A model generated the notes under the pieces. That model had not been told where the DNA came from. It saw only the letters and a list, made by a program, of their open reading frames with translations, and ran no database searches. From Thermoleophilia bacterium UBA6103 (GTDB lineage: Bacteria; Actinomycetota; Thermoleophilia; UBA2241): 64,000 bases of DNA. Numbering within the stretch: position 1 is the first letter of the stretch; each line of letters begins with the position of its first letter. Below, one piece after another: positions 11,233 through 58,658 of this stretch. Location of the stretch: assembly GCA_002423545.1 (NCBI GenBank), contig DIWP01000046.1, positions 32,437 to 96,436 on the forward strand, read 5' to 3'. Position numbers and translations under genes: made by a program.

Positions 11233-12213
11233 TCACAGTCCCTTGTGCTTCGCAGAGTCGTCGCAGTGCGCCGCGGGGCCGGCGCCGTTGCGGCGGATCA
11301 GCTTGCGCATCACGGCATGTCCCACGAGGCCGGCCATGGCCGGGTTCTCGCGCATGCGTCGCTGGGAGTAGGCGGCCGCGTCGCTGCCGTAGGGCACGTA
11401 GATGCGCACTCTGTGCTCGCGTGCCAGTGTCCTTGCCAGGTCGCCTCTGACGCCGAGCAGCATCTGGAACTCGTAGGCATCGGGGGAGAGGCCGAGCTCC
11501 GAGACGGCTCGCAGCGCCTCCACGATCAGGTACTCGTCGTGCGTCGCGATGCCCACGTAGGAGCCTCGGCTGAGCAGGCGTCTGAGCATCTCGCAGAAGC
11601 TGGCGCGTATGGCGTCGTAGTCCTGCAGGCCCACGTCGGGCTTCTCGAGATAGATGCCCTTGCAGAGCCTGACGTTGGGCGTCAGGTCGGCGAGGGCCTG
11701 TACGTCCCCCAGGCTGCGCCAGAGCCTCGACTGAAGGACGACGCCGGTGCCGGTCAAGCCCGTGCTCCGCAGACGACGGTACAGAGCCAGCGTGGCGTCG
11801 GTGGTGGTGGCGTCTTCCATGTCGATGCGGACGAAGACCCCGAGCTCCGCTGCGTGCGTCAGCATCGCTGTGATGGCGGCCTCAGAGGCGTCCCAGTTCG
11901 TCGTACTGCCGAAGGCGCTCGGCTTGAGGCTGACGTTGGCATCGAGACGATCAGCCGTGATCGCCTCGAGCAGAGCCTTGTAGTCTGAGACGGTCATGTC
12001 GTTGCGCGACTCGTCCTCGACGCTCTCGCCGAGGATGTCGACCGTTGCGCACAGGCCGGCGCGGTTGAGGCCCTTCACGGTGCGCACTGCATCTTCGAGC
12101 CTGCTGCCGGCGATATACGGACTGGCAAGAGCCTTCACCACCGGTCCGGGGACGAGCGGAGCGGCCACCGAGACCATGCGGCCGAAAGCACCACCAGAGG
12201 CCGATCGCGTCAT
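11233..12213 (-). CDS. Proline dehydrogenase (monofunctional PutA-like)
   Basis: ProDH TIM-barrel motifs (VDILGESV, VSLKPSAFG, VRIDMEDA, RLCKGIY, GIATHDE, YEFQMLLGVR, RIYVPYG). Confidence 0.85.
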   Translation of the reverse strand: MTRSASGGAFGRMVSVAAPLVPGPVVKALASPYIAGSRLEDAVRTVKGLNRAGLCATVDILGESVEDESRNDMTVSDYKALLEAITADRLDANVSLKPSAFGSTTNWDASEAAITAMLTHAAELGVFVRIDMEDATTTDATLALYRRLRSTGLTGTGVVLQSRLWRSLGDVQALADLTPNVRLCKGIYLEKPDVGLQDYDAIRASFCEMLRRLLSRGSYVGIATHDEYLIVEALRAVSELGLSPDAYEFQMLLGVRGDLARTLAREHRVRIYVPYGSDAAAYSQRRMRENPAMAGLVGHAVMRKLIRRNGAGPAAHCDDSAKHKGL

Positions 12214-12601: not shown

Positions 12602-13786
12602 ATGGACCTCTTCGAGTGGCACGGCAAGCGTCTGTTCGCGGCGGCCGGCATCCCGGTGCCGCGTGGCAGCGTGGCGCGCACCGTCGACGAGGCGTGTGCA
12701 GCGGCGGCGACGCTGGGGTTCCCGGTCGTCGTCAAGGCGCAGGTACTCACCGGCGGTCGCGGCAAGGCCGGCGGCGTGCGCACCGCCGGCAGCACCGGCG
12801 AGCTCGCCGCGGTCGCCCGGCACATCCTCGATCTGACCATCCGCGGCTTCGCGGTAGACGCGCTGCTCATCGAGGCGGCGCTGGCCATCCGTCACGAGCT
12901 CTACCTGGCTGTGACCCTCGACAGGCGCCGGCGCCGGCCGCTGCTGCTCATCTCGGCCGAGGGCGGCATGGACATCGAGCAGGTCGCGCGCGAGCATCCG
13001 GGCTCGCTGTTCAAGGCGCCGCTCGATCCGCTTCTGGAGCCGTCGCAGGCGGTGCACGATGGTGCGTGGGAGGCTCTCTCCGGAGCTGCCGCCGCGGCGC
13101 GGCTCGACGGCCGCCTGCGCGACGATCTGGTGGACCTTGCGACGGCCGTCTACCGCCTCTACCGCGACCACGACGCGACGCTCATCGAGCTGAATCCTCT
13201 GGCGGTAGTCGAAGGCGACGGCGACGGCGACGGCCACGGCGTTCGTCTCATGGCGCTCGACGCCAAGGTGACCGTCGACGACAACGCTCTGTTCCGGCAG
13301 CCGGACCTGGCGGCCTGGCGCACCGGCGAGGACGAGCGCGAGCGGCGGGCACGTGAGGCCGGCGTCACCTACGTGACGCTCGACGGCGACGTGGGCGTCA
13401 TCGGCAACGGCGCCGGCCTCGTCATGAGTACCCTCGACCTGATCGCCGCGGCCGGCGGTCGGGCGGCCAATTTCTGCGACATCGGCGGCGGCGCGCGGGC
13501 CGATCAGATCGCCGCCGCCCTGCAGATAGTCACCGCCGACGAGCGCGTGCGCGGCCTGCTGGTCAACGTGTTCGGCGGCATCACCCGCGGCGACGAGGTC
13601 GCGCGCGGTCTGCTCGCGGGTCTTCGGCAGCTCTCCGATCGGTCGCTGCCGATGGTCGTCCGTCTCGATGGCAACAACGCGGCCGCCGGGCGCGCGCTGC
13701 TGGCGGCCGAGCGCCCCGGTCTGGCTGTCATGGAGACCCCGTGGGACGCCGTGCAGCGGGTCGTCTCCCTGGTGGCGGAGGGCTGA
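12602..13786 (+). CDS. sucC: Succinyl-CoA synthetase (or related NDP-forming acyl-CoA ligase) beta subunit
   Basis: [20 protein letters not shown]…[21 protein letters not shown]…[15 protein letters not shown]…CDIGGGA. Contains an unusual [10 protein letters not shown] low-complexity insertion. Confidence 0.8.
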
Positions 13787-13787
13787 C

Positions 13788-14738
13788 GTGGCGATCCTGG
13801 TCGACGAAGGCAGCCGCGTCCTGGTGCAGGGCATCACCGGGCGGGAGGGCACGTTCCATACGGAGCGCATGCTGGCCGCCGACACCCGCATCGTGGCCGG
13901 CGTTACGCCGGGCAAGGGTGGCAGCACGGTGCACGAGGTGCCGGTTTTTGGGACCGTCCAGGAGGCGGTGGCCGCGACCGGCGCCGATGTCGCCGTCGCC
14001 TTTGTTCCGGCTCGCTTCGCCAAGGCGGCCGCCCTGGAGTCGGCCGACGCCGGCATACGGCTCGCGGTGCTCATCACCGAAGGCATCCCGGTGCGCGACA
14101 TGGTCGAGCTGACCGCCGAGCTGGAGGGCTTCGGCCTCGACGAGATCCAGCGCCGGGCGCTGGGCCGACGCGACCCCGACGCAGCGGATGAGCCGGTCGC
14201 GTCACGCGGCGGCATGACGCTCGTGGGTCCCAACTGCCCGGGAGTGGTCTCGCCGGGCGCCTGCAACGTCGGCATCATGGCCGCCGACATCTTCCTGCCC
14301 GGTGGCGTCGGCGTGGTTTCGCGCAGCGGCACGTTGACCTACGAGATCGTTGGTGGCCTCACGCGGCTCGGTATCGGCCAGTCGACCTGCGTCGGCATGG
14401 GCGGCGACCCGGTCCACGGCGTGGGCTTCCTGGAATGCCTCGAGTTGTTCGAAGCCGACCCGCAGACCGAGGCGGTGGTGCTGGTCGGCGAGATCGGCGG
14501 CGACGACGAGGAGCGCGCCGCTGCGTACGCTGCCGAGCACCTCACGAAGCCGGTGGTCGCCTACCTCGCCGGCTTCACCGCGCCGCCCGGCAAGCGCATG
14601 GGGCATGCGGGGGCCATCGTCTCCGGCGCCGGCGGCACGGCGGCCGCCAAGGCCGAGGCGCTCGAGGCGGCCGGCATCCCGGTGGCGCGGCGTCCCGATG
14701 AGGTACCGGGTCTGGTGGCCGCGGCACTCGGCCGCTGA
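13788..14738 (+). CDS. sucD: Succinyl-CoA synthetase alpha subunit
   Basis: GTG at 13788, in frame with ORF 13668..14738, 1 nt after the sucC stop. Motifs: [53 protein letters not shown]. There is a roughly 25-30 aa insertion ([31 protein letters not shown]) before the GPNCPG loop. Confidence 0.85.
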
Positions 14739-14879: not shown

Positions 14880-15554
14880 GTGCTTGTGCTAGCCTTCATG
14901 CTTCGAGCAGCGTCCATCCAGGACGTGCGGGATCGGGGGACAGATGATCGAGCGCGGCGACCGATGAGCAGTCGCACAGGGGGCCAGGCGGCGAAGCGGC
15001 GTACCGCCGGACGTGGCTCTGCGGCGCGGGCGTCGTCGCCGAAGGCACCGGTGAAGATCACCGGCACGCTCTCCAACCTGCTCCTGATCGGACTCGGCCT
15101 GCACGGTGTCGGGATCGTCGGGACCTGTCTCGCCATCGGCATCGCCCTGCGTTCGGCCGGCGACAAGCTGCCGGTGGGTGAGAAGATCTCGTTCCCGCTG
15201 CTGCTTCTCATCGTGGTGCTCGGCACCTACATCTGCTTCGCAAGCGTGCACGGGGCGGCGCTCTACCTGATCCGCCGTGGCGGGAACGAGCAGGGACTCA
15301 CCATGATGGCGTTCGGCGGCGGGGTGCTCGCCATCGCCACGATAGCGGGCGGCTTCTACGCTTTCGGCGAGCGGTTCTTCATGCTCGGTGCGGCGGCGGC
15401 GTATGCGGTGCCCTATTCGCTGGCGCCGCTGATCGTGGGGCTGCCGACCACCGCCGCTGCCGCCGTGCTGGCGTTCCGCCAGAGACGCGGCGGCTCGGGC
15501 AGCCGCTCGGGCAGCCGGTCGCAGCGCGCCCAGCAGCCGCGCCTGCTGCGCTGA
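14880..15554 (+). CDS. Hypothetical membrane protein (about 4 predicted TM helices); start uncertain, possibly Met at 14964
   Basis: Hydrophobic segments (LLLIGLGLHGVGIVGTCLAIGIAL, FPLLLLIVVLGTYICFASV, GGVLAIATIAGGFYAF, AAAAYAVPYSLAPLIVGL). No family recognised. Confidence 0.4.
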   Translation: MLVLAFMLRAASIQDVRDRGTDDRARRPMSSRTGGQAAKRRTAGRGSAARASSPKAPVKITGTLSNLLLIGLGLHGVGIVGTCLAIGIALRSAGDKLPVGEKISFPLLLLIVVLGTYICFASVHGAALYLIRRGGNEQGLTMMAFGGGVLAIATIAGGFYAFGERFFMLGAAAAYAVPYSLAPLIVGLPTTAAAAVLAFRQRRGGSGSRSGSRSQRAQQPRLLR

Positions 15555-15783
15555 AGGCCGGCCCTTGCGCCGACCGGCCGACCTGCGCTGATTGGCCAAT
15601 CGCCCCCGCCGCGTCTGCCGGTGTGGTGCATCGCCCGCCCTTTCGTCCTCGAGCGAGCGTGTGCTAGCGTTCAAAGGCTTCAGGGTAGGAGCCGCGAAGC
15701 GCCACAGCACCGGCAAGCTTGCATGCGGACGGCCGTGGCCGCCGCTCCGCGGACTATCGGCGTCGAACAGGGAGGAGACCCCC

Positions 15784-17673
15784 ATGCCCCAGCCAGAGCA
15801 CCAGCCCACCGTCGAGGAGCTCAAGGCCAAGGCCTACCAGCCCATGGAAGACGCCACGGTCCTGCATCCGTTCTACAAGGGCAAGATCGAGACCACGCTC
15901 AAGTGCTGCGTGCGCGACTTCCAGGACTTCGGCATCTGGTACACGCCCGGCGTCTCGGCTCCCTGTCTGGAGATCAAGGACGACCCCGAGAAGATCTACG
16001 AGCACACCAACAAGTGGAACACGGTGGCGGTCATCAGCGACGGCACCCGCGTTCTCGGCATGGGAGACATCGGCCCCAAGGCCGGCATGCCGGTCATGGA
16101 GGGCAAGAGCCTGCTCTACAAGTACCTGGGCGGCGTCGACGGCTTTCCGCTGATGGTGGACACGAAGGATCCCGACCGCTTCATCGAGTTCGTCAAGCTC
16201 GTCCAGCCGGGCCTCGGCGGCGTCAACCTGGAAGACATCGCCCAGCCCAAGTGCTTCCGCATCCTCGACACGCTGCGCGAGGAGTGCGAGATCCCGGTCT
16301 GGCACGACGACCAGCAGGGCACCGCCTGCGTCACCTTGGCCGGCCTCATCAACGCTCTCAAGGTCACCGGCAAGAAGATCGACGAGATCAGGATCGCCTT
16401 CATCGGCTCGGGGGCGGCCAACGTGGCCATCAGCCGCCTCATCTTCCACTACGGCGCCCGCCCCGAGCTGGCCCGCGTCTGCGACTCCAAGGGCATCCTG
16501 CACAAGGGCCGCAGCGACATCGAGGCCGTCAAGGACGAGTGGGTCGACAAGTGGAAGTACTGCCAGATCACCAATGAGGAGCAGCGGACCGGCAGCATCG
16601 CCGAAGCCCTGGCCGGCGCCGACGTCTGCATCGCCCTCTCCAAGCAGGGTCCGGACACCATCGTGCCGGAGTGGATCAAGGGCATGAGCCCCGACCCGAT
16701 CGTCTTCCTGTGTTCCAACCCGATTCCCGAGATGTGGCCCTGGGATGCGCTGGAGGCGGGCGCCGCGGTGGTCGCCACCGGCCGCTCCGACTTCCCCAAC
16801 CAGGTCAACAACAGCCTCGGGTTCCCCGGCATCTTCCGCGGCACCCTCGATGTGCGCGCCAAGACGATCACCGACGAGATGTGCATCGCCGCCGCCGAGG
16901 AACTCGCCAGGCTGGCCGAGGAACAGGGCCTGCGGCCCGACTACATCATGCCGACCATGGACGACTGGGAGGTCTTCCCGCGCGAGGCCGCCGCGGTGGC
17001 CATGAAGGCGGTCGAGCAGGGCGTGGCGCTGCGCACCGACATCACCTACGAGCAGGAGAAGGCCGAGGCCACAGAGATCATCGCCCGGGCCCGCGGCCTG
17101 GTGCAGGACGCCGAGGCGCTCGGCTACATCAAGATGCCGAAGGGCAGCAAGCCGCCGGCGCCGACGAAGCAGGCTGTGCGGGCGGTCGGGCGCGGCGTGG
17201 CGGCCGATGCCCGGGCCAAGGGCACCGCCGCCGCCGACGAGGCGCGCGAACGCGGCAAGCAGCTGCTGGCCGACGCGCGCGAGCAGGCCAAGCGGATCGT
17301 CGCCGAGGCCCGCTCGGAGGCCCGCCGTGCCGGCGGCGACGCACGCACCCAGGCGCGGGCCGACGCCCGGCAGGTCGTCGCCGACGCCAGGCACGAGGCC
17401 ACGGAGATCGTCGACGAAGCGGTCCACCACGCCAGCGAGACCATGGACGAGGCTCACGTGAAGGCGCGCGAGCTGGTGCAGGAGGCGGTGGCCGAGGCCA
17501 GGCGGATCACCCAGGAGGCGCAGAAGACGCTCGGCAAGTCGGCCGAGGCGGCCGCCGAGAAGGGCAAGCAGGTCGCCAAGGAGGCCAAGGCCGCCGCCAA
17601 GGAGGCCGCCAAGCAGGCGAAGAAGGCGCGCGCCAAGGCCAAGGACAAGAAGAAGGGCAAGAAGGGCAAGTAA
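15784..17673 (+). CDS. NAD(P)-dependent malic enzyme with about 190-aa C-terminal Ala/Glu/Lys/Arg-rich extension
   Basis: ATG at 15784 is preceded by GGAGGAG. Malic-enzyme motifs (VLHPFYKGKIETTLKC, GIWYTPGVSAPC, VISDGTRVLGMGDIGPKAGMPVMEGKSLLYK, FIGSGAANVAI). From about nt 17170 there is a low-complexity helical tail ending in KKARAKAKDKKKGKKGK. Confidence 0.85.
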   Translation: MPQPEHQPTVEELKAKAYQPMEDATVLHPFYKGKIETTLKCCVRDFQDFGIWYTPGVSAPCLEIKDDPEKIYEHTNKWNTVAVISDGTRVLGMGDIGPKAGMPVMEGKSLLYKYLGGVDGFPLMVDTKDPDRFIEFVKLVQPGLGGVNLEDIAQPKCFRILDTLREECEIPVWHDDQQGTACVTLAGLINALKVTGKKIDEIRIAFIGSGAANVAISRLIFHYGARPELARVCDSKGILHKGRSDIEAVKDEWVDKWKYCQITNEEQRTGSIAEALAGADVCIALSKQGPDTIVPEWIKGMSPDPIVFLCSNPIPEMWPWDALEAGAAVVATGRSDFPNQVNNSLGFPGIFRGTLDVRAKTITDEMCIAAAEELARLAEEQGLRPDYIMPTMDDWEVFPREAAAVAMKAVEQGVALRTDITYEQEKAEATEIIARARGLVQDAEALGYIKMPKGSKPPAPTKQAVRAVGRGVAADARAKGTAAADEARERGKQLLADAREQAKRIVAEARSEARRAGGDARTQARADARQVVADARHEATEIVDEAVHHASETMDEAHVKARELVQEAVAEARRITQEAQKTLGKSAEAAAEKGKQVAKEAKAAAKEAAKQAKKARAKAKDKKKGKKGK

Positions 17674-17739
17674 GGCCCGCGCGCCACCCCGTACGACCAG
17701 ATGGCCGACGCCGACCGTCGGCCGCAGGAGGTGATCGCG

Positions 17740-18591
17740 ATGCCCGTCAGAGAGGTCGACGTCGCCGACGTGACGGCGGCCATCGAGCGCCTCTGCAAGG
17801 AGGCCAACTACGACCTGCCCAAGGACGTCTACGCGGCGCTCGAGGCGGCCAAGAAGACGGAGGAGTCGCCGGTAGGCCGGGCCGTGCTCGACCAGCTCAC
17901 CGAGAACGCGGACATCGCCGCTCGCGACCGCGTGCCCATCTGTCAGGACACCGGCTACGCGGTGCTGTTCATCGACGTCGGGCAAGACGTGCACTTCACC
18001 GGCGGCGGCTTCGAGGACGCGGTGCACGAAGGCGTACGCCGCGGCTACACCGAGGGCTACCTGCGCAAGAGCGTGGTCGAACAGCCGGCGCACGCCCGGG
18101 CCAACACGAAAGACAACACGCCGGCCGTGATCCACACGCGGATAGTGCCCGGCGGCGGAGTCCGCATCCTCTTCATGCCGAAGGGCGGCGGCGCCGAGAA
18201 CATGAGCAGCCTGAACATGCTCAAGCCGGCGCAGGGCGTGCAGGGGGTCATCGACGCGGTCGTCGAGACGGTCTCGAAGGCCGGCTCCAACCCCTGTCCG
18301 CCGGTGGTCATCGGCGTCGGCATCGGCGGTAGCATCGACATGGTCACGGTGCTGGCCAAGAAGGCGCTGGCCCGCGAGATCGGCTCACGGCATCCCGACC
18401 CGCGGCTGGCCGAGCTGGAGGACGAGCTGCTGCGCCGCATCAACGCGCTGGGCATCGGTCCGCAGGGTCTGGGCGGCACCACCACCGCCCTGGCCGTGTT
18501 CATCGAGGAGATGCCGAGCCACATCGCCAGCATGCCGATGGCGGTCAACGTGCAGTGCCACGCGCAGCGCCACGTGGTGGCGGAGCTCTGA
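17740..18591 (+). CDS. Class I fumarate hydratase (or L(+)-tartrate dehydratase), alpha / N-terminal-domain subunit
   Basis: FumA-N / TtdA motifs (PICQDTGYAVLFIDVG, ILFMPKGGGAENMS, VVIGVGIGGS). Start taken as the internal Met (MPVREVD); 17701 is also possible. Confidence 0.8.
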   Translation: MPVREVDVADVTAAIERLCKEANYDLPKDVYAALEAAKKTEESPVGRAVLDQLTENADIAARDRVPICQDTGYAVLFIDVGQDVHFTGGGFEDAVHEGVRRGYTEGYLRKSVVEQPAHARANTKDNTPAVIHTRIVPGGGVRILFMPKGGGAENMSSLNMLKPAQGVQGVIDAVVETVSKAGSNPCPPVVIGVGIGGSIDMVTVLAKKALAREIGSRHPDPRLAELEDELLRRINALGIGPQGLGGTTTALAVFIEEMPSHIASMPMAVNVQCHAQRHVVAEL

Positions 18592-18611
18592 AGCGACGCG
18601 GGAGGAGTGAG

Positions 18612-19166
18612 ATGGTCAAGAGGATCACGACCCCGCTGACCGACGAGGTCGTCAGAGACCTGCGCATCGGCGACGAGGTCCTCATCAGTGGTGTGGTCTA
18701 CCAGGCGCGCGACGCGGCCCACAAGCGCATGGTCGCGCTCATCGAGCAAGGGGAACCGCTGCCGTTCGAGATCCAGGGCGCGGTGATCTACTACATGGGG
18801 CCGTCGCCGGCCAGGCCCGGCAACGTGATCGGCTCGGCCGGTCCCACCACCAGCGGCCGCATGGACGCGTACGCGCCGCTGCTCATGGAGAAGGGCCTCA
18901 AGGGCATGATCGGCAAGGGTCTGCGCACCGACGCGGTCAAGCAGGCGATGGTCGACACCACGGCGGTGTACTTCGCCGCCACCGGCGGCGCCGGCGCCCT
19001 GCTGGCCCAGCGCATCACCGGCAACGAGGTGATCGCCTGGCCGGAACTGGGCGCCGAGGCGCTGGCCCGGCTGCAGGTCGAGGACTTCCCGGCGATCGTG
19101 GTCGGCGACTGCCACGGCGGCGACCTCTATGAGGTGGGCCGCAGGGAGTACGCGCGCCAAGTGTGA
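18612..19166 (+). CDS. Class I fumarate hydratase beta / C-terminal-domain subunit
   Basis: ATG at 18612 is preceded by GGAGGAG. FumA-C / TtdB motifs (RITTPLTDEVVRDLRIGDEVLISGVVYQARDAAHKRM, YYMGPSPARPGNVIGSAGPTTSGRMD). Confidence 0.8.
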   Translation: MVKRITTPLTDEVVRDLRIGDEVLISGVVYQARDAAHKRMVALIEQGEPLPFEIQGAVIYYMGPSPARPGNVIGSAGPTTSGRMDAYAPLLMEKGLKGMIGKGLRTDAVKQAMVDTTAVYFAATGGAGALLAQRITGNEVIAWPELGAEALARLQVEDFPAIVVGDCHGGDLYEVGRREYARQV

Positions 19167-19203
19167 GACGGCGGCTGAAGAAGCACGGTCGAGGTGCGTG
19201 GCG

Positions 19204-20178
19204 ATGAGCGATGTCGGCATCATCGATCGCGCCGTCGCGGCGGCCATACCGCTGGTGCCGACGCGCCTGGTGCGTACCTTCGCGGCGCCGTACATCGGCG
19301 GCGAGACGCTCGAACAGGCGCTCTCCGTGGTGCGCCGCCTCAATGCGGCCGGACTGGCCGCCAGCCTCGATGTCCTCGGCGAGGACGTCCACGACGAGGC
19401 CGGCGTGCGGGCCATGGTGGCGGCCTATCGGCAGGCGCTGGCGGCGCTGGCCGCCGGGAGCGCCGACGCCGGTGTGAGCGTCAAGCCCAGCGCCCTCGGG
19501 GCCGCCATCGACTGGGATCGCTGTCACGACGCCATCGTCGAGGTACTCGACGGGGCGGCCGCGTCGTCCGCAGGCGGCGGCCGCTTCGTCCGGCTGGACA
19601 TGGAGGAGTCGGCCACAGTCGACGGTACGCTGGCGCTGTACCGCCGTCTGCGCGAGGAGGGACGGGAGCGCGTCGGCATCGTCCTGCAGGCGCGGCTCTG
19701 GTGCACGTCGGCGGACGTCAAGGCACTGGCCGACCTGGCTCCGGACGTGCGCCTCTGCAAGGGCATCTACCTCGAGCCGCCGAGCGTCGGCATGCAGGAC
19801 CGTGAGGCGATCCGGCACAGCTTCTCGGCGCTGCTGCGGCAGCTGCTGCGCGCCGGCTCCCGGGTCGCGATCGCCACCCACGACGAGGTGCTGGTGACCG
19901 ACGCGCTGGCGGCCATCGACGAGTATTCTGTGCCGGCCGCCGGCTACGAGTTCCAGATGCTGTTGGGCGTGCGCGGTGACCTGGCGCGGACGCTCCGTCG
20001 CGCCGGCCACCGCGTGCGCATCTACGTACCCTTCGGCAAGGACGTCTTCGGCTACTCCGTGCGGCGGCTGCGCGAGAACCCGGCGGTCGCTGGCCACGTG
20101 GCCCGGGCTTTGCTCGCCGACCTCGTCCGCGGCGTCCGCCACGGCCGTCGGCGACCCGATGGGCAGGGCGTGCGATGA
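19204..20178 (+). CDS. Proline dehydrogenase (second paralog)
   Basis: The same ProDH motif set as 11233..12213 (LDVLGEDV, VSVKPSALG, VRLDMEES, RLCKGIY, AIATHDE, YEFQMLLGVR, RIYVPFG). Paralogous to it by eye. Confidence 0.8.
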   Translation: MSDVGIIDRAVAAAIPLVPTRLVRTFAAPYIGGETLEQALSVVRRLNAAGLAASLDVLGEDVHDEAGVRAMVAAYRQALAALAAGSADAGVSVKPSALGAAIDWDRCHDAIVEVLDGAAASSAGGGRFVRLDMEESATVDGTLALYRRLREEGRERVGIVLQARLWCTSADVKALADLAPDVRLCKGIYLEPPSVGMQDREAIRHSFSALLRQLLRAGSRVAIATHDEVLVTDALAAIDEYSVPAAGYEFQMLLGVRGDLARTLRRAGHRVRIYVPFGKDVFGYSVRRLRENPAVAGHVARALLADLVRGVRHGRRRPDGQGVR

Positions 20179-20287: not shown

Positions 20288-21073
20288 GGAGAGGCAGGTC
20301 CAGGTGAGCATGGACGATTACCGGCCCCGCGATCCCAAGCCGCGCTCTTCGACCGTCTGCGCTGCGTGGACTACGGCGACGTCTTCTTCCACGCCGGCAA
20401 CATGTTCGACTTCCTCGACCAGGCCGAGCGGACCGTGAGCGGGATCCTGGCCGGCGGCGCTCAGGTGCTGGCGTTCGGCGGCGACCACATGATCCCGCTG
20501 CCGATCGTGCGCGCGTACGCGAAGCACCTGAAGCGCCCGCTCTCGCTGGTCCACTTCGACGGGCATCTCGACGACTGGGACACCTTCCCCTAATAGTGGG
20601 GCGGTAGCTGGGTGACCGAGCTGGCCGACGAGGGGTGCCTGGATCTGTCGCGCTCGGTGCAGCTCGGCATCCGCGTGCTGGGCGACGAGGCGCCGGAGGG
20701 AGAGCTCTACCCGGCGACCTCGGATGCTGTCGTCATCGGCGCCGACGAGTGTCTCGACGAGGGTCCTCTGGCCGCCGCGGCGCGGGTCCGTGAAGTGGTC
20801 GGCGACGCGCCGGTCTACCTGACCTTCGACGCCGACTTCCTCGACGCGTCGGTGGCGCCGGCCTGCCACACGCCCTGCGTCTGCGGGCCGGACACGTACT
20901 GGACCAAGCGGTTCTTCCGCGCCGTGCGCGGCCTCAACGTGGTGGGGGCAGACGTCAACGAGCTCTGCCCCCAGTACGAGCCGCCGCTGGGCCCCACCCA
21001 GCTCGCCCTGGGCCACGTGGCGTTCTGGACCTTGCGGCTCATGGAACAGGTCCCGGGCTGCGTCTCGGGCTGA
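20288..21073 (+). pseudogene. Agmatinase/arginase (ureohydrolase) family gene, N-terminally truncated and interrupted by in-frame tandem stops TAA-TAG at 20591-20596
   Basis: ORFs 20366..20593 and 20612..21073 are in the same frame and together span ureohydrolase motifs (VDYGDV…AFGGDHMI…LVHFDGHLD, then SVQLGIRV…VYLTFDADFLD…GADVNELCPQYEPP). An upstream in-frame TGA at 20285 leaves no room for the usual 60-80 aa N-terminus. Confidence 0.6.
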
Positions 21074-22070: not shown

Positions 22071-22247
22071 CCGCCCGTGACTGCGGCGGGCGGCCCAGCC
22101 ACGAGTCTGCTTTCGCCGATTCGGCAAGACTGCTAGGCTACCGGCCTGACGGCCGCGGCCGTATGCCGCGCCGCCGTTTCGTATTCGCGGCCGGAGACGT
22201 CGGAGTCTCCGGCCCGCGCGGACCGCAGTACTGGGAGAGTCCGTCAG

Positions 22248-23921
22248 TTGATTGCTCACGAGGTGCTGATCATCGGCGCCGGCCTGGCCGGCATGCGGGC
22301 GGCGATCGCCGCTCACGATGCCGGCGCCGACGTCGCTCTGGTCAGCAAGGTCCACCCCGTCCGCAGTCACACATGCTGCGCGCAGGGCGGCATCAACGCC
22401 GCCCTCGGCGACGACGACTCGTGGGAAGCCCACCTGTTCGACACCGTCAAGGGATCGGACTACCTGGGCGACCAGGACGCCATCGAGGTCATGTGCAAGG
22501 CGGCACCCGGCGACATCCGTGCCCTGGAGCACATGGGTTGCCCGTTCAGCCGCTTCGAGAACGGGCGCATCGCGCAGCGGCCGTTCGGCGGCGCCGGCTT
22601 TCCGCGCACGGCCTACGCCGCCGACATCAGCGGCTTCGTGCTCCTGCATACCATGTACGAGCAGGTCCTGCGCCGCGGCATCCGCCTCTATCAAGAGTGG
22701 TACGTCACCCGTCTCGTGCTCGACGACGGCGTCGCGCGCGGCGTGGTCGCCATCGACCTTCTCACCGGGAAGCTGCATGCCATGGCCGCCAAGGCGGTGG
22801 TGATCGCCACCGGGCCGGCCAGCCGCATCTACCAGAGCTCGTCCAATTCGGTCGACTGTACCGGCGACGGCATGGGCATGGCCTATCGTGCCGGCCTGCC
22901 GCTCATGGACATGGAGTTCGTGCAGTTCCACCCCACCGGGCTGCGCAACGGGGTGCTGATCACCGAGGGCTGTCGCGGAGAGGGCGGCATCCTGCTCAAC
23001 AGTGACGGCGAGCGGTTCATGAAGCGCTACGCGCCCACCAAGGGCGAGCTCGCCAGCCGCGACGTGGTCTCGCGCGCCGAGGCGACCGAGATCGCCGAGG
23101 GACGCGGCATCGATGGGTTCATCATGCTCGACCTGCGCCCCATCGGGCCGGAACGTATCCGCACCAACCTGCTGCAGGTACGCGAGCTGTCCATGGACAT
23201 CGCCGGCGTGGATCCCTGCGAGGCGCCGATCCCCATCCGACCCACGCCGCACTACTTCATGGGCGGCGTACGGGCCGGCGTCGACGGCAGGTCGCCGGTT
23301 GCCGAGGGGGCCTACTTCGCCGGCGAGGTGAGCTGCATCAGCGTGCACGGCGCCAACCGGCTGGGTGGCAACTCGCTGCTCGACGCGGTGGTGTTCGGCC
23401 GTCGCTCGGGAGAGGCGGCGGCCGCCCATGCCGCCGCACACGAGCAGCTGCCGCTGCCGGAGAGCGCCGTGCGCGACCAGGAGGCGGAGATCGCCGAGCT
23501 GGCCGGCCGCGACGGCGACGGCGAACGGCAGGCCACCATCCGCGAAGAGCTGCAGAAGCTGATGTTCGCCAAGGTCGGCATCTGGCGCGAGAAGGGCGCC
23601 CTTGCCGAGGCCGTGGACGAGGTGCGCGCGCTCAAGGAACGGTACGCGCGCGTCCGGCTGGGCCACGCCGGGGCCGTGTTCAACACCGAGCTGCCGCAGG
23701 TACTCGAGACGGGCAACCTGCTCGACCTGGCCGAGTGTGTGGCCATGGGCGCGCTCGATCGCGAGGAGAGCCGCGGCAGCCACGCGCGCACCGACTTCCC
23801 GGAGCGCGACGACGAGGTCTGGATGAAGCACAGCCTGTTCACGCGTGGCGACGACGGCCCCGTCTGCGACACTGCGCCGGTCACGATCACCCGCTACGAG
23901 CCGGAAGTGAGGACCTACTGA
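22248..23921 (+). CDS. sdhA: Succinate dehydrogenase / fumarate reductase flavoprotein subunit
   Basis: FAD-binding flavoprotein motifs (VLIIGAGLAGMRAAIAA, HTCCAQGGINAA, RSHTVAAEGG-like, HYFMGGV, ISVHGANRLGGNSLLD). Confidence 0.85.
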   Translation: MIAHEVLIIGAGLAGMRAAIAAHDAGADVALVSKVHPVRSHTCCAQGGINAALGDDDSWEAHLFDTVKGSDYLGDQDAIEVMCKAAPGDIRALEHMGCPFSRFENGRIAQRPFGGAGFPRTAYAADISGFVLLHTMYEQVLRRGIRLYQEWYVTRLVLDDGVARGVVAIDLLTGKLHAMAAKAVVIATGPASRIYQSSSNSVDCTGDGMGMAYRAGLPLMDMEFVQFHPTGLRNGVLITEGCRGEGGILLNSDGERFMKRYAPTKGELASRDVVSRAEATEIAEGRGIDGFIMLDLRPIGPERIRTNLLQVRELSMDIAGVDPCEAPIPIRPTPHYFMGGVRAGVDGRSPVAEGAYFAGEVSCISVHGANRLGGNSLLDAVVFGRRSGEAAAAHAAAHEQLPLPESAVRDQEAEIAELAGRDGDGERQATIREELQKLMFAKVGIWREKGALAEAVDEVRALKERYARVRLGHAGAVFNTELPQVLETGNLLDLAECVAMGALDREESRGSHARTDFPERDDEVWMKHSLFTRGDDGPVCDTAPVTITRYEPEVRTY

Positions 23922-24982
23922 TGCCGGCCGCCGACGACCCTGGTGTCCCGCCTGTGACTGCGGCTCTGGCCATCCGCCGCTACGATCCGGAGCTCGGCGA
24001 TGAGGCTCGCTGGCAGCGCTACGAGATCGAGATGCCGGCCGGCTCCACGGTGCTCGAGGCGCTCATGTACGTGCAGGAGCACGTCGACGGATCGCTCGCC
24101 TTCCGCCGCAGCTGCCGGCACGCCATCTGCGGCTCGTGCGGCATGCGCATCAACGGGTGTGCCCGCCTGGCCTGCAACACGCAGCTCACCGCGGTCGTCG
24201 CCGAGGCCGAGCGGCGCGCGGCACGCCGGAGCGCCGCGGCGACGAGCGGCGACGACGACGCGGCGCTCGCCGGCGCCGCCGTGCGCATCGAGCCGCTCGG
24301 CAACATGCCGGTCATCAGGGACCTGGTCACAGACATGACCGTCTTCTGGGAGAAGCTGCGCAGCGTGCAGCCGTGGCTGCAGTCGCTCGACGATCGCGCC
24401 GACGCCGATGGCGAGCGGCTGATGACACCGCACCAGTATGCCGTCATCGCTCAGGGTCTGCTGTGCGTGGAGTGCGGCGCCTGCTACTCGGACTGCATCG
24501 CCGTGGAGGCGGCGCCCGAGTTCGTCGGCCCCACGTCGCTGGTGAAGGCCTACCGGTACGCCTACGACGTGCGGGACGATCAGGCGCATCGACGTCTACA
24601 CGATCTCGCCGGCGAGCACGGCATGTGGGAGTGCACGCACTGCTACGTCTGCACCCAGCGCTGTCCCAAGCATCTGCGGGTCCGCGAGCTCATCGGGCGC
24701 CTGTCCGAGCTGGCGCAGGTCGAGGGGTTGTGCAGCGACGCCGCCGTGAAGCGGTCTCAGGCTTTCGTGGCCGGCATCGAGCAGAGCGGCCGGGTCGACG
24801 AGCGGACGCTCGCCGAGAAAGCGGGCGCGGTGCGCGGTGGCGTGTCGGCGGCGCTTCCGGCGCCGGTCTCCGAGATGTTGCGGGGCGGCGCCCGCGAGCC
24901 GATCTCTGATGTGGACCTGGTGCGGCGCGTCGCCGGTCGGCTGCGTGGACCGGGGAGCACCGGCGCCGAGGGTGCGCCATGA
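23921..24982 (+). CDS. sdhB: Succinate dehydrogenase / fumarate reductase iron-sulfur subunit, type-E-like (extra cysteine in the third cluster motif)
   Basis: [2Fe-2S] motif CRHAICGSCGMRINGCARLAC. Two C-x2-C-x2-C-x3-C(P) motifs (CVECGACYSDC and CTHCYVCTQRCP); the second, with four Cys, is the hallmark of type-E SdhB. It also carries an Ala/Arg-rich insertion and a C-terminal extension. Confidence 0.8.
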   Translation: MPAADDPGVPPVTAALAIRRYDPELGDEARWQRYEIEMPAGSTVLEALMYVQEHVDGSLAFRRSCRHAICGSCGMRINGCARLACNTQLTAVVAEAERRAARRSAAATSGDDDAALAGAAVRIEPLGNMPVIRDLVTDMTVFWEKLRSVQPWLQSLDDRADADGERLMTPHQYAVIAQGLLCVECGACYSDCIAVEAAPEFVGPTSLVKAYRYAYDVRDDQAHRRLHDLAGEHGMWECTHCYVCTQRCPKHLRVRELIGRLSELAQVEGLCSDAAVKRSQAFVAGIEQSGRVDERTLAEKAGAVRGGVSAALPAPVSEMLRGGAREPISDVDLVRRVAGRLRGPGSTGAEGAP

Positions 24983-26052
24983 GGTACGCCTACTATCCCG
25001 GCTGCTATGCCAAAGGCACCGCGCCCGAGCTCGACAGCAGCACGAGGGCCGTCTGCGAGAGGCTTGGCATCGAGCTGGAAGAGCTCACCGCCGCGCCGTG
25101 CTGCGGCGCCGGCGACGTGCAGCAGGTCGACGGTCCCCTGGCACAGGGCCTCAACGAGCTCACGCTCGCGCAGGCCCAGCACCTCGGTCTGGACATCCTC
25201 ACGATCTGCAACGTCTGCACGCTGAGCCTGCGGCAGGCGAACGTCGCGGTCGAGGAGGGTCGGCACCTCGACAGGGGGTCGGCGTGCCTGGCGGTGGCCG
25301 ACCCCGGCTGCCCGGCGTCTGCCGATGGCGCGAGCGACTCGGCACCGACGGTGCTACCGGGCGGTGCGACAGAGGATCCGCCGCCGGCCGGCGCGGCCGC
25401 GACGGGCGGCCCCGTGCCGCCGGGCTTCGGGCAGCGCTGGCCGCTCTCCGGCGCCGAGGCGGCTGCCGCCACGACCGCCGCGCTGGCACCGGAAGGCCTG
25501 GCCTATGCCGGCGGCGTCGCTGTCACCCACCTGCTCTGGGTGCTGTGGAAGGATGTCGGCGTCGAGCGGCTGGCGGAACAGGTGCAGCAGCGTCTCGGCA
25601 GTCTCACGCTGGCGCCCTTCTACGGCTGTCAGATCCTGCGGCCGGCTGCTGTCAACGACGACGACGTGGCCGACGATCCCACCGCCCTCGAAGATCTTGT
25701 CGCCGCCTGCGGTGCCGCCGCCGTCGACTACGACGGCCGTCTCAAGTGCTGCGGCTGGCCGGTCATGTACGTCCGTCAGTCGGCGGCCACCACCATGGCG
25801 GCGCGGGTCGTCCGCAACGCGGCGGCGGCCGGCGCCGACGCCATCGTCACGCCGTGCCCTCTCTGTCATGCGGCTCTGGAAGGCTGCCAGTCGGCGTCCG
25901 CCACCGGCTCCGAGCGGCTGCGTCTGCCGGTGCTGCATCTGCCGCAGATGATCGGCCTCGCGCTCGGATGCTCGCCGCGTCGTCTCGGCCTCGTCGACCA
26001 CGCCATCGACACCAGGCCGCTGCTCGCACGCCTCGGCCTTACGCTCGCCTGA
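24979..26052 (+). CDS. HdrB-like CCG-domain subunit (SdhE / TfrB C-terminal-domain-like) of a type-E succinate dehydrogenase or fumarate reductase
   Basis: Two CCG cysteine-rich domains (YPGCYAKG…PCCGAG…CNVCTLS and FYGCQILRP…KCCGWP…CPLCHAALEG), separated by a roughly 90-aa Ala/Pro/Gly-rich low-complexity insert. ATGA overlap with sdhB. Confidence 0.75.
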   Translation: MRYAYYPGCYAKGTAPELDSSTRAVCERLGIELEELTAAPCCGAGDVQQVDGPLAQGLNELTLAQAQHLGLDILTICNVCTLSLRQANVAVEEGRHLDRGSACLAVADPGCPASADGASDSAPTVLPGGATEDPPPAGAAATGGPVPPGFGQRWPLSGAEAAAATTAALAPEGLAYAGGVAVTHLLWVLWKDVGVERLAEQVQQRLGSLTLAPFYGCQILRPAAVNDDDVADDPTALEDLVAACGAAAVDYDGRLKCCGWPVMYVRQSAATTMAARVVRNAAAAGADAIVTPCPLCHAALEGCQSASATGSERLRLPVLHLPQMIGLALGCSPRRLGLVDHAIDTRPLLARLGLTLA

Positions 26053-53523: not shown

Positions 53524-53792
53524 AACGATAACAATCCCGAAGGGGTCGGTGGCGGTCGCTCCCGTTGCGCGTACCTGTGTGAGGGGCCTGAGAACACTCC
53601 GTGTGCCGCGTCCCTTGAGCGCAGGCGCGGCACCGGCAGTAGTCGAGAGTGACGATGGCTCGGCGAGGGTGACAATGGTTGCCTCCGGCGCAGGTGACGA
53701 GTCATCGTGCGACGCTCAAGTGTGCTCAGGTCGCACCCGATAGGTGATTCGAGACCACGCAGGGGCACTTTGACGCTGACGCACGAGGTGAC

Positions 53793-58658
<4,866 letters not shown>

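Follow-up and report, generated by a model that had tools for sequence, protein, structure and literature searches.

Why should a malic enzyme of ordinary build end in a long, periodic and strongly basic tail? The question is raised by a gene of 629 codons plus a TAA stop (15784-17673) in a stretch of 64,000 nucleotides from Thermoleophilia bacterium UBA6103, an uncultured actinobacterium of soil or fresh water (NCBI GenBank assembly GCA_002423545.1, contig DIWP01000046.1, positions 32,437 to 96,436); this whole stretch is called the window, and features in it lie on the forward (+) strand unless a minus sign is given. Past its catalytic core and a proline-rich hinge, the encoded protein runs on for another 168 residues, mostly in 11-residue helical repeats that lead to a lysine-rich tip. 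The enzyme is ordinary and the appendage new: searches of the literature on malic-enzyme C-terminal extensions and on actinobacterial lysine-rich enzyme tails turned up nothing relevant, and no description of such malic-enzyme tails was found. The answer developed here is that the tail is a real and selected part of the protein, that its lineage conserves a helical periodicity rather than a sequence, and that, as our tentative first choice among several explanations, it may keep the enzyme tethered to, or clustered on, an anionic surface. Related proteins and related DNA loci are cited by working labels (P and L numbers, respectively).

Architecture of the tail

The tail starts behind a conserved proline-rich junction, or hinge, GYIKMPKGSKPPAPT (17122-17166; amino acids, aa, 447-461). 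It follows the motif GYIxMPxGSxxPxPT, and in an alignment of 25 relatives G447, Y448, M451, P452, P458 and P460 never vary. The tail proper comprises the 168 residues beyond the junction G447...T461, that is, aa 462-629. Over aa 463-629 it contains 47 Ala, 22 Lys, 18 Arg and 18 Glu and not a single Pro, with a net charge of +13 that is spread unevenly. A first helix (17167-17331; aa 462-516) is built of hendecad repeats and carries a net +6. It is followed by a Gly-Gly hinge (17332-17337; aa 517-518) and by the first half of a second helix (17338-17502; aa 519-573), which has four His, a net charge of -6 and a predicted packing on helix 1. The remainder, aa 574-629, is net +14, the last 18 residues alone accounting for +10, and includes the Lys/Ala-rich polycationic terminus (17566-17670; aa 595-629).

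About 13 hendecad repeats extend over 17203-17634 (aa 474-617), with an a-d-e-h core formed by register columns 11, 3, 4 and 7; 11 of 14 repeats have Ala in column 7. The repetition is far outside chance at the protein level. Residue identity at a lag of 11 is 0.33 vs 0.134 +/- 0.026 in shuffled sequences (z = 7.6), and hydrophobic power peaks at 3.67-3.70 residues, the 11/3 period, with a value of 164 (mean of 5000 shuffles 9, maximum 68), compared with only 11 and 26 at periods of 3.5 and 3.6 residues. Around the helix this produces an uncharged stripe of Ala, Val, Ile and Leu, with no charged residue in 33 positions, flanked on one side by a basic strip (13 K/R, 1 D/E) and on the other by an acidic one (17 D/E, 6 K/R). 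The Ala stripe is narrow, and the mean directions, +119 degrees for K/R and -140 degrees for D/E, place the two charges on opposite flanks.

AlphaFold2, given the tail alone, predicts a helical hairpin with a mean predicted local distance difference test (pLDDT) score of 81, rising to 93-98 over aa 480-550. Helices 462-516 and 519-626 are joined by a turn at G517-G518, the arms are complementary in charge (+6/-6) and the Lys-rich end is left free.

The DNA beneath the tail has two different histories. Tandem repeats with periods of 21, 12 and 9 bp (17551-17675) underlie the Lys/Ala terminus, where they encode AKEA- and KKG-type units, and are traces of slippage-type expansion. Tandem Repeats Finder (TRF) detected no 33-bp DNA period beneath the hendecads, so the 11-mers are old or maintained at the protein level and are not recent duplications.

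The original prediction, made from the sequence alone, had described an in-frame, amphipathic, helical extension with a strongly basic end, and the 11/3 periodicity, the predicted helices and the charge of the last 18 residues bear this out. Its span of 17170-17673 corresponds to codons 463-629 plus the stop, and the peptide that it quoted is present exactly. Its length estimate of 170-190 aa was slightly generous: 168 residues lie past the junction, and some 45 earlier ones that follow the NAD(P)-binding domain (aa 404-447) are common to the subfamily. The proposed likeness to histone H1 or HupB holds loosely, and at most for aa ~595-629; it fails for the rest, with its roughly 120 residues of hendecads, no Pro and no PAKK repeats.

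Coding signal and selection

At this base composition a long open frame is cheap. The window is about 70% guanine plus cytosine (GC) and the tail 75%, and a spurious antisense open reading frame (ORF) of 793 aa spans the malic enzyme region; because long stop-free stretches are common at high GC, the length of the tail alone proves nothing. The argument comes from elsewhere. GC by codon position is 0.78/0.50/0.958 in the tail and 0.62/0.42/0.955 in the core, the same coding signature. Measured against a 94%-identical relative from another metagenome (L081), the ratio of nonsynonymous to synonymous substitution rates (dN/dS) comes to 0.23 over the tail and 0.145 over the core; in the tail it rises to 0.58 against a more distant relative (L082; P0004). 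An identical protein exists in public collections (P0132), on a contig of 186,924 bp, and the 90% cluster of the protein holds five 629-aa variants in public assemblies with zero indels. The distinct tail substitutions among these variants are conservative, 16 of 20 staying within one physico-chemical group and only 3 of 20 altering charge. Relatives of 603-620 aa bear comparable tails in the same sucCD-ME-fumAB context (ME, malic enzyme). A genuine stop near aa 470, which would have made the tail an error, was looked for and is not there, as the five variants and the many tailed relatives attest.

Nor is the tail a separate downstream gene in relatives, the other circumstance under which the original prediction would have fallen: in 78 related loci, no separate Ala/Lys/Glu-rich ORF that could have been the source of a fusion lies downstream of the malic enzyme gene. 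A few public assemblies do show the tail as a small ORF of its own (P0127-P0131, P0135), and a profile of 16 tails of the type called b below matched five 'stand-alone' proteins of 71-96 aa. These stand-alone tail genes were rejected. At the two loci that were checked (L084, L085), tblastn showed frameshifts within the malic enzyme gene itself, its pieces running through frames 3, 1, 2, 3, and further genes on those contigs are likewise disrupted. In such error-prone assemblies (P0135/P0137; L084, 3687-5228; L085, 3612-5291) the frameshifted gene yields a tail-bearing C-terminal fragment that is called separately, and the P0135 fragment, tail included, was annotated by one pipeline as 'vacuolar-type H+-ATPase subunit H'. 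Judged by its sequence, the tail is thus a genuine, in-frame, translated and selectively maintained C-terminal appendage, neither a frameshift nor a fused neighbour.

Tails of relatives

The tail is no peculiarity of this gene; it is one flavour of a trait that belongs to a whole Thermoleophilia-type group, with Lys/Ala/Pro tails in a sister group. A scan of genomes groups the gene with metagenome-assembled genomes (MAGs) of uncultured Thermoleophilia and 'Actinomycetes'. All 70 Thermoleophilia-type sequence clusters have a tail after the same junction, and the junction motif is found in 120 of the 120 best homologues. Orthologues from MAGs labelled as other phyla (mostly Chloroflexota, e.g., Anaerolineae; also Bathyarchaeia) end in '...GFIPAPPEE' at about 450 aa, and a few relatives of 469-470 aa are almost tail-less.

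Three flavours can be distinguished. Flavour (a), found in the sister group (P0071-P0119; L013, 4001-5410), is polycationic: about 30-45 aa rich in Lys, Ala and Pro, net +12 to +19, with no helical periodicity. The core of these proteins is 73-80% identical, the junction motif is the same, and one labelled example is a Thermoflexales MAG (L013); the sister-group tail is an independent polycationic solution at the same position. Flavour (b) is a helical mini-domain of about 45-100 aa with the consensus KAAMKAAARGAGDYAGExADKAVDAxGPAAQKAADAAQ...AIKRATERKK, ending in only 3-4 basic residues; one subtype (P0023, P0032, P0035, P0036, P0052; L004, L006, L008, L010, L011) adds an acidic Pro-rich segment (…KKDDGVTDAEVVDEEPPAWTPPAAEPEPP…). 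Flavour (c) is the long form of the window's own subclade (P0001-P0007), with tails of about 100-170 aa and a Lys/Ala-rich end.

What these helical tails share is a period. The best hydrophobic period lies at 3.64-3.75 in every one of them (71 clusters), with z from 3 to 30. Since the 11/3 period is kept while the sequence turns over, selection preserves 11/3 amphipathicity, and the conserved property of the tails is their periodicity and not their sequence. The arrangement of charge around the helix differs among flavours. In 65 type-b tails D/E lie opposite the apolar face (mean 170 degrees, resultant 0.78) and K/R at about 113 degrees, a class-A layout, by which exchangeable apolipoproteins are able to bind lipid (PMC8000854). 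Over all flavours, net charge is positive in 101 of the 120 tails, and in 98 the last 10 residues carry a net +2 or more.

The original prediction suggested a search for homologous tails on other enzymes of the lineage. Related DNA of about 220 kb, with 164 likely ORFs that include sucCD and fumAB, encodes no other protein with a similar tail, and the tail is specific both to the lineage and to this enzyme.

Family resemblances

Profile libraries place the tail near several families without assigning it to any. All of its family matches (ATP-synt_B, AhaH, V-ATPase E/G, FliH/HrpE, Scy, DivIVA/Wag31, Apolipoprotein) are sub-threshold: 22.3 bits vs a cutoff of 28 for ATP-synt_B, 30 vs 48.5 for archaeal AhaH, 26.7 vs 200 for FliH and 15.3 vs 90 for Apolipoprotein. 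Models of the actinobacterial cytoskeleton are likewise not reached (Scy 22.5 vs 1040, Wag31 24.7 vs 260, DivIVA 9.6 vs 28). Profile scans of the window's tail gave no match to DNA-binding families and none to phasin, perilipin or LEA/LEA_4 profiles. The relatives come closer to some of these. Type-b tails fall just short for ApoLp-III (30.3 vs 36.3 bits) and Phasin_2 (23.2 vs 24.9) and are sub-threshold for Apolipoprotein and Perilipin as well, and relatives' tails show weak matches to LEA_4 (best 13.7 vs 51.1 bits), HSP9/12 and YtxH.

Searches with the tail itself were no more specific. A sequence search of the PDB returned designed helical bundles only, at E 0.009 or worse, and Foldseek with the tail model had no match at E < 1e-3 and produced generic helical hairpins only. 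When 1.84 billion representatives were searched exhaustively with phmmer, no homologous module turned up on other proteins; the six matches at E < 1e-3 (best 8.7e-9) were rejected as unrelated 11-mer-repeat proteins (response regulator, histidine kinase, FliH-like and DivIVA-like). A word-indexed homology search with the tail alone returned nothing, and even the near-identical P0001 was missed, probably through low-complexity handling, so this result is no evidence of absence.

Over aa 474-594 the mean hydrophobicity is -0.02 and the hydrophobic moment 0.28. E. coli subunit b has a hydrophobicity of -0.03 and a moment of 0.23, and alpha-synuclein a hydrophobicity of 0.19; in hydrophobicity the tail thus matches subunit b rather than alpha-synuclein. 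The right-handed coiled-coil peripheral stalks of rotary ATPases are defined by a-d-e-h hendecads in which Ala, Leu, Glu and Arg abound, and by that definition (PMC6131620) the window's tail has the pattern of a right-handed coiled coil. The likeness to the stalk families is one of repeat type and not of homology.

A tether for an anionic surface?

The explanation that we favour, tentatively and with less than even confidence, is that the tail is a self-associating helical spacer with a polycationic tip, by which the enzyme is clustered on, or tethered to, an anionic surface, in the simplest case the membrane. Standing behind a flexible hinge and outside the conserved fold, the tail is probably non-catalytic and would act outside catalysis. 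Its helices would self-associate into a rod, either as an intramolecular hairpin (the +6 arm on the -6 arm) or by pairing between subunits. The rod would then hold out the flexible polycationic tip, which could bind an anionic cellular surface electrostatically, and the enzyme would thereby be tethered or clustered there. The simplest target would be the acidic-phospholipid face of the cytoplasmic membrane or a phospholipid-coated inclusion, because all three flavours (class-A helix, polybasic and hybrid) could plausibly bind it; nucleoid, RNA and polyphosphate are alternative targets. The original prediction had offered scaffolding, association with nucleoid, polyphosphate or membrane, and a compartment-targeting signal as candidate roles.

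A broader version extends to the clade as a whole. The tails may be a dedicated, fast-evolving localisation device by which a central enzyme that yields NAD(P)H and pyruvate is brought to the membrane or to an inclusion coated with phospholipid. Related lineages would have swapped among a class-A 11/3 helix, a polycation of Lys, Ala and Pro, and a long coiled-coil rod tipped with polylysine. This wider claim is doubtful, and somewhat less probable than the tether proposed for the window's own tail.

Several observations weigh against tethering. The window's helices are not class A, their acidic and basic residues standing on separate flanks, and they are too hydrophilic for classical membrane insertion; affinity for a membrane would therefore rest mainly on the Lys-rich tip. 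Among the relatives, 12 of 120 have net-negative tails that end in the acidic Pro-rich extension, and they fit poorly with a universal polyanion-binding role; where that extension turns the whole tail net negative, no polyanion-binding model explains it. Tail length ranges from about 8 to 168 aa, and with this variation and a dN/dS that reaches 0.58, the constraint on sequence is loose. We know of no physiological reason for a membrane-sited malic enzyme, and among the roughly 30 window proteins scanned there are no compartment-shell, encapsulin, storage-granule, lipid-storage or polyphosphate genes, and none that points to a partner. The predicted hairpin itself calls for caution, single-sequence predictions of low-complexity helices being often over-confident, and the full-length AlphaFold2 model (25 close homologues) is poor, with a pLDDT of 58, and was not used for inference.

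The strongest competitor, though unlikely, drops the surface altogether. The tail would be an oligomerisation or assembly module only, the tails of different subunits zipping into a coiled coil that stabilises dimers or tetramers or gives rise to filaments or higher-order assemblies, and the basic end would merely add solubility. An a-d-e-h core with one basic and one acidic flank would permit salt bridges between paired helices, and the family similarities to stalk and coiled-coil proteins point the same way. Precedents exist within the enzyme class, for the large eukaryotic malic enzymes have C-terminal extensions that help to form the tetramer interface, and MaeB is driven to oligomerise by its PTA domain. 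Assembly alone leaves unexplained the Pro-containing Lys/Ala/Pro tails of the sister group, which are incapable of forming a coiled coil, as well as the strongly conserved basic termini (98 of 120 relatives), and tails that vary three-fold in length would be unexpected of a defined interface.

A different emphasis falls on the tip. In line with the H1/HupB idea of the original prediction, the Lys-rich end could put the enzyme on the nucleoid or in a polyanion condensate by binding DNA, RNA or polyphosphate, which we regard as quite improbable. The charge of +10 in the last 18 residues is suggestive, as are the classic Lys/Ala/Pro tails of the sister group (net +12 to +19), and DNA binding is established for the Lys/Ala/Pro tails of HupB, H1, PhaF and actinobacterial TopA. 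The window's tail has neither Pro nor PAKK repeats and matched no DNA-binding family, and type-b relatives have only 3-4 basic residues at their ends; about 120 of the 168 residues form an amphipathic rod that would have no role in such a model.

Two further explanations are, in our estimate, about equally remote. In the first, the tail would be a coat for lipid droplets or polyhydroxyalkanoate (PHA) granules, in the manner of phasins, apolipoproteins or perilipins, and would dock an NAD(P)H-producing enzyme on inclusions. In oleaginous actinobacteria lipid synthesis draws NADPH from malic enzyme. Amphipathic 11-mer repeats are a hallmark of perilipins, apolipoproteins and alpha-synuclein. Even weakly hydrophobic giant 11-mer helices are able to coat lipid droplets (PMC5889406, PMC8064757). 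The class-A pattern of the relatives, with Phasin_2 and ApoLp-III scores just under threshold, would also suit a coat; the tail of the window does not, for it is not class A and lacks any phasin, perilipin or LEA match, and no storage-polymer genes occur among the window genes scanned.

In the second, the tail would be a protective or solubility appendage acting in cis, an 'entropic bristle' like the LEA proteins or hydrophilins that guards against aggregation under desiccation, heat or osmotic stress. The tail shares with group-3 LEA proteins an 11-mer repeat and an abundance of Ala, Lys, Glu and Asp, relatives' tails match LEA_4, HSP9/12 and YtxH weakly, and a loose sequence with conserved physico-chemistry and variable length fits a non-specific role that would cover all flavours. 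Such a bristle does not explain why only this enzyme, out of 164 neighbouring ORFs, should bear a tail, nor why a conserved hinge and an exact 11/3 periodicity are kept up; the LEA_4 score, moreover, lies far below its cutoff of 51.1 bits at 13.7 and is absent for the window's tail.

Least probable among the biological explanations, with very little to recommend it, is neutral growth of low-complexity sequence, in which drift of the stop codon and replication slippage in a 70-75% GC genome would have produced a functionless, tolerated tail. The 21/12/9-bp tandem repeats under the Lys/Ala end, the strong turnover of length and sequence among relatives and the dN/dS of 0.58 against P0004 would be expected from it. 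Against it stand the short-range dN/dS of 0.23 and the conservative substitutions (16 of 20), the 11/3 periodicity in every helical tail (z up to 30) and the occurrence of a tail in 70 of 70 Thermoleophilia-type clusters. As for an artefact, whether an assembly or sequencing frameshift that fused a downstream gene or a read-through, the separate small ORFs that might speak for it come from assemblies with multiple frameshifts inside the malic enzyme gene and broken neighbours, and with five intact 629-aa copies on record, a junction in frame in 120 of 120 homologues and no candidate downstream ORF in 78 loci, it is effectively refuted already, with scarcely any probability left to it.

Catalytic core and start codon

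The gene was listed as an ORF of 693 aa starting at a TTG (15592-17673). Its true start is the ATG at 15784, because a Shine-Dalgarno sequence, GGGAGGAG (15770-15777, as read from the sequence), stands 6 nt before it, the homologues all begin at the same Met, and GC at third codon positions (GC3) falls to 0.77 upstream of 15784, vs 0.955 within the gene.

The malic-enzyme core is complete, as first proposed. The Pfam malic N-terminal domain (15880-16167; aa 33-128; E = 4.5e-27) and the Malic_M NAD(P)-binding domain (16315-16992; aa 178-403; E = 1.2e-25) score 95.5 and 90.8 bits, both above their gathering cutoffs (23.1 and 23.5, respectively). Among solved structures the nearest is that of the Entamoeba histolytica malic enzyme (PDB 3NV9), which aligns over aa 19-439 with E = 2.4e-140. 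Behind Malic_M comes a C-terminal helix (16993-17121; aa 404-446) that aligns to 3NV9 up to about aa 439 and is common to the whole subfamily, tail-less orthologues included. The absence of a PTA-like domain of the MaeB type, also proposed at the outset, is borne out: the product has no Pfam PTA match, and a PTA domain is lacking because the MaeB model NF009501 matches in its N-terminal half only, over positions 20-410 of 764 (299 bits vs a cutoff of 1178). The gene product is a small-type, PTA-less malic enzyme.

Gene neighbourhood

Gene order is kept in relatives as sucC-sucD-(small hydrophobic protein)-ME-fumA-fumB. In the window, sucC and sucD, for the beta and alpha subunits of succinyl-CoA ligase, are the conserved upstream neighbours (12602-14738), and class I fumarate hydratase alpha and beta (17740-19166) begin 66 nt after the malic enzyme stop. 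No terminator-like site was found between the malic enzyme gene and the fumarate hydratase genes, and a promoter and terminator scan gave nothing above shuffled expectation. Between sucD and the malic enzyme gene lies a predicted multi-pass hydrophobic protein that belongs to no Pfam family (14964-15554). As a putative lead, it could be a membrane partner of the tailed enzyme. An unannotated ORF of 140 aa stands at the equivalent place in L082 (5388-5810) and L083 (506-928), equated with it by position only.

Other features of the region deserve brief mention. Two paralogous proline dehydrogenase genes (PF01619), at 11233-12213 (-) and 19201-20175 (+), stand on either side of sucCD-ME-fumAB. 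An arginase-family gene (PF00491; 20288-21073) is interrupted by consecutive in-frame stops, TAA TAG, at 20591-20596, with profile positions 46-126 before the stops and 136-273 after them; its orthologue in L082 is intact at 330 aa, and the window copy could be a pseudogene or an assembly artefact. Further downstream, an sdhA-like flavoprotein (22137-23918) and a CCG-domain protein (24910-26049) extend the tricarboxylic acid (TCA) cycle and respiratory theme. An ORF of 1636 aa at 53748-58658 is coding-like in its GC3 (0.91) and contains a short charged coiled-coil segment (56622-56741).

Implications

Malic enzymes are textbook soluble enzymes, for which the known accessory elements are MaeB's PTA domain and, in the large eukaryotic forms, a short C-terminal arm. 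In the present case a whole uncultured actinobacterial lineage has added a selected, periodic tail of 50-168 residues to this enzyme alone within a TCA-cycle gene cluster. Most notably, a single conserved junction is followed by one of three tail chemistries, interchangeable with one another, and the exact 11/3 periodicity is preserved.

Should the tail localise or assemble the enzyme, it would show, in a simple form open to test, how bacteria can compartmentalise metabolism without a compartment. Localisation in particular would mean that the spatial organisation of TCA-linked metabolism is encoded in a tail that no profile library recognises, and the tail could then serve as a portable tethering tag. 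There is also a lesson for annotation, since tail-bearing fragments are liable to be labelled by their type of repeat: 'vacuolar-type H+-ATPase subunit H' is one such label, and the sub-threshold apolipophorin and phasin matches set the same trap.

Comparison with known systems

The stalks of rotary ATPases and their kin (F-type b; A/V-type E, G and H/AhaH; FliH/HrpE/YscL) share with the tail a long, rod-like helix whose a-d-e-h hendecads abound in Ala, Glu, Arg and Lys. The tail differs from these stalk subunits in its sub-cutoff scores, in having no membrane anchor and no ATPase gene context, and in being attached to an enzyme. The amphipathic 11/3 periodicity of exchangeable apolipoproteins, apolipophorin-III, perilipins and phasins is found in the window's tail as well; unlike the class-A proteins, it carries its charges on opposite flanks of a narrow Ala stripe, has a low hydrophobicity and reaches no family threshold.

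Mycobacterial HupB, PhaF, AlgP and the tails of actinobacterial TopA are Lys/Ala-rich and strongly cationic, as is the window's protein at aa 595-629. Unlike tails of the H1 type, that of the window's enzyme lacks Pro and the tetrapeptides PAKK and AAKP, is predicted to be helical, and is cationic over only some 20% of its length. Known cargo-targeting peptides are about 10-20 aa long, and a repeat-built tail of 168 aa is unlike these.

Among malic enzymes, the small-type forms (3NV9; Pyrococcus horikoshii, 1WW8; Thermotoga maritima, 1VL6) have the same core and most of the helix that follows the NAD domain. Those that have been solved or characterised are not known to extend past that C-terminal helix, whereas the window's enzyme goes on with a Pro-rich hinge and 168 residues more. 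The MaeB hybrids of a malic enzyme and a PTA-like domain (PDB 6ZNG, 8JZO) have a homologous N-terminal malic-enzyme module (E ~1e-94) and resemble the window's enzyme in bearing a large C-terminal addition that is non-catalytic for malate decarboxylation. In MaeB that addition is a globular, regulatory PTA-like domain; in the window's enzyme it is a helix built of repeats.

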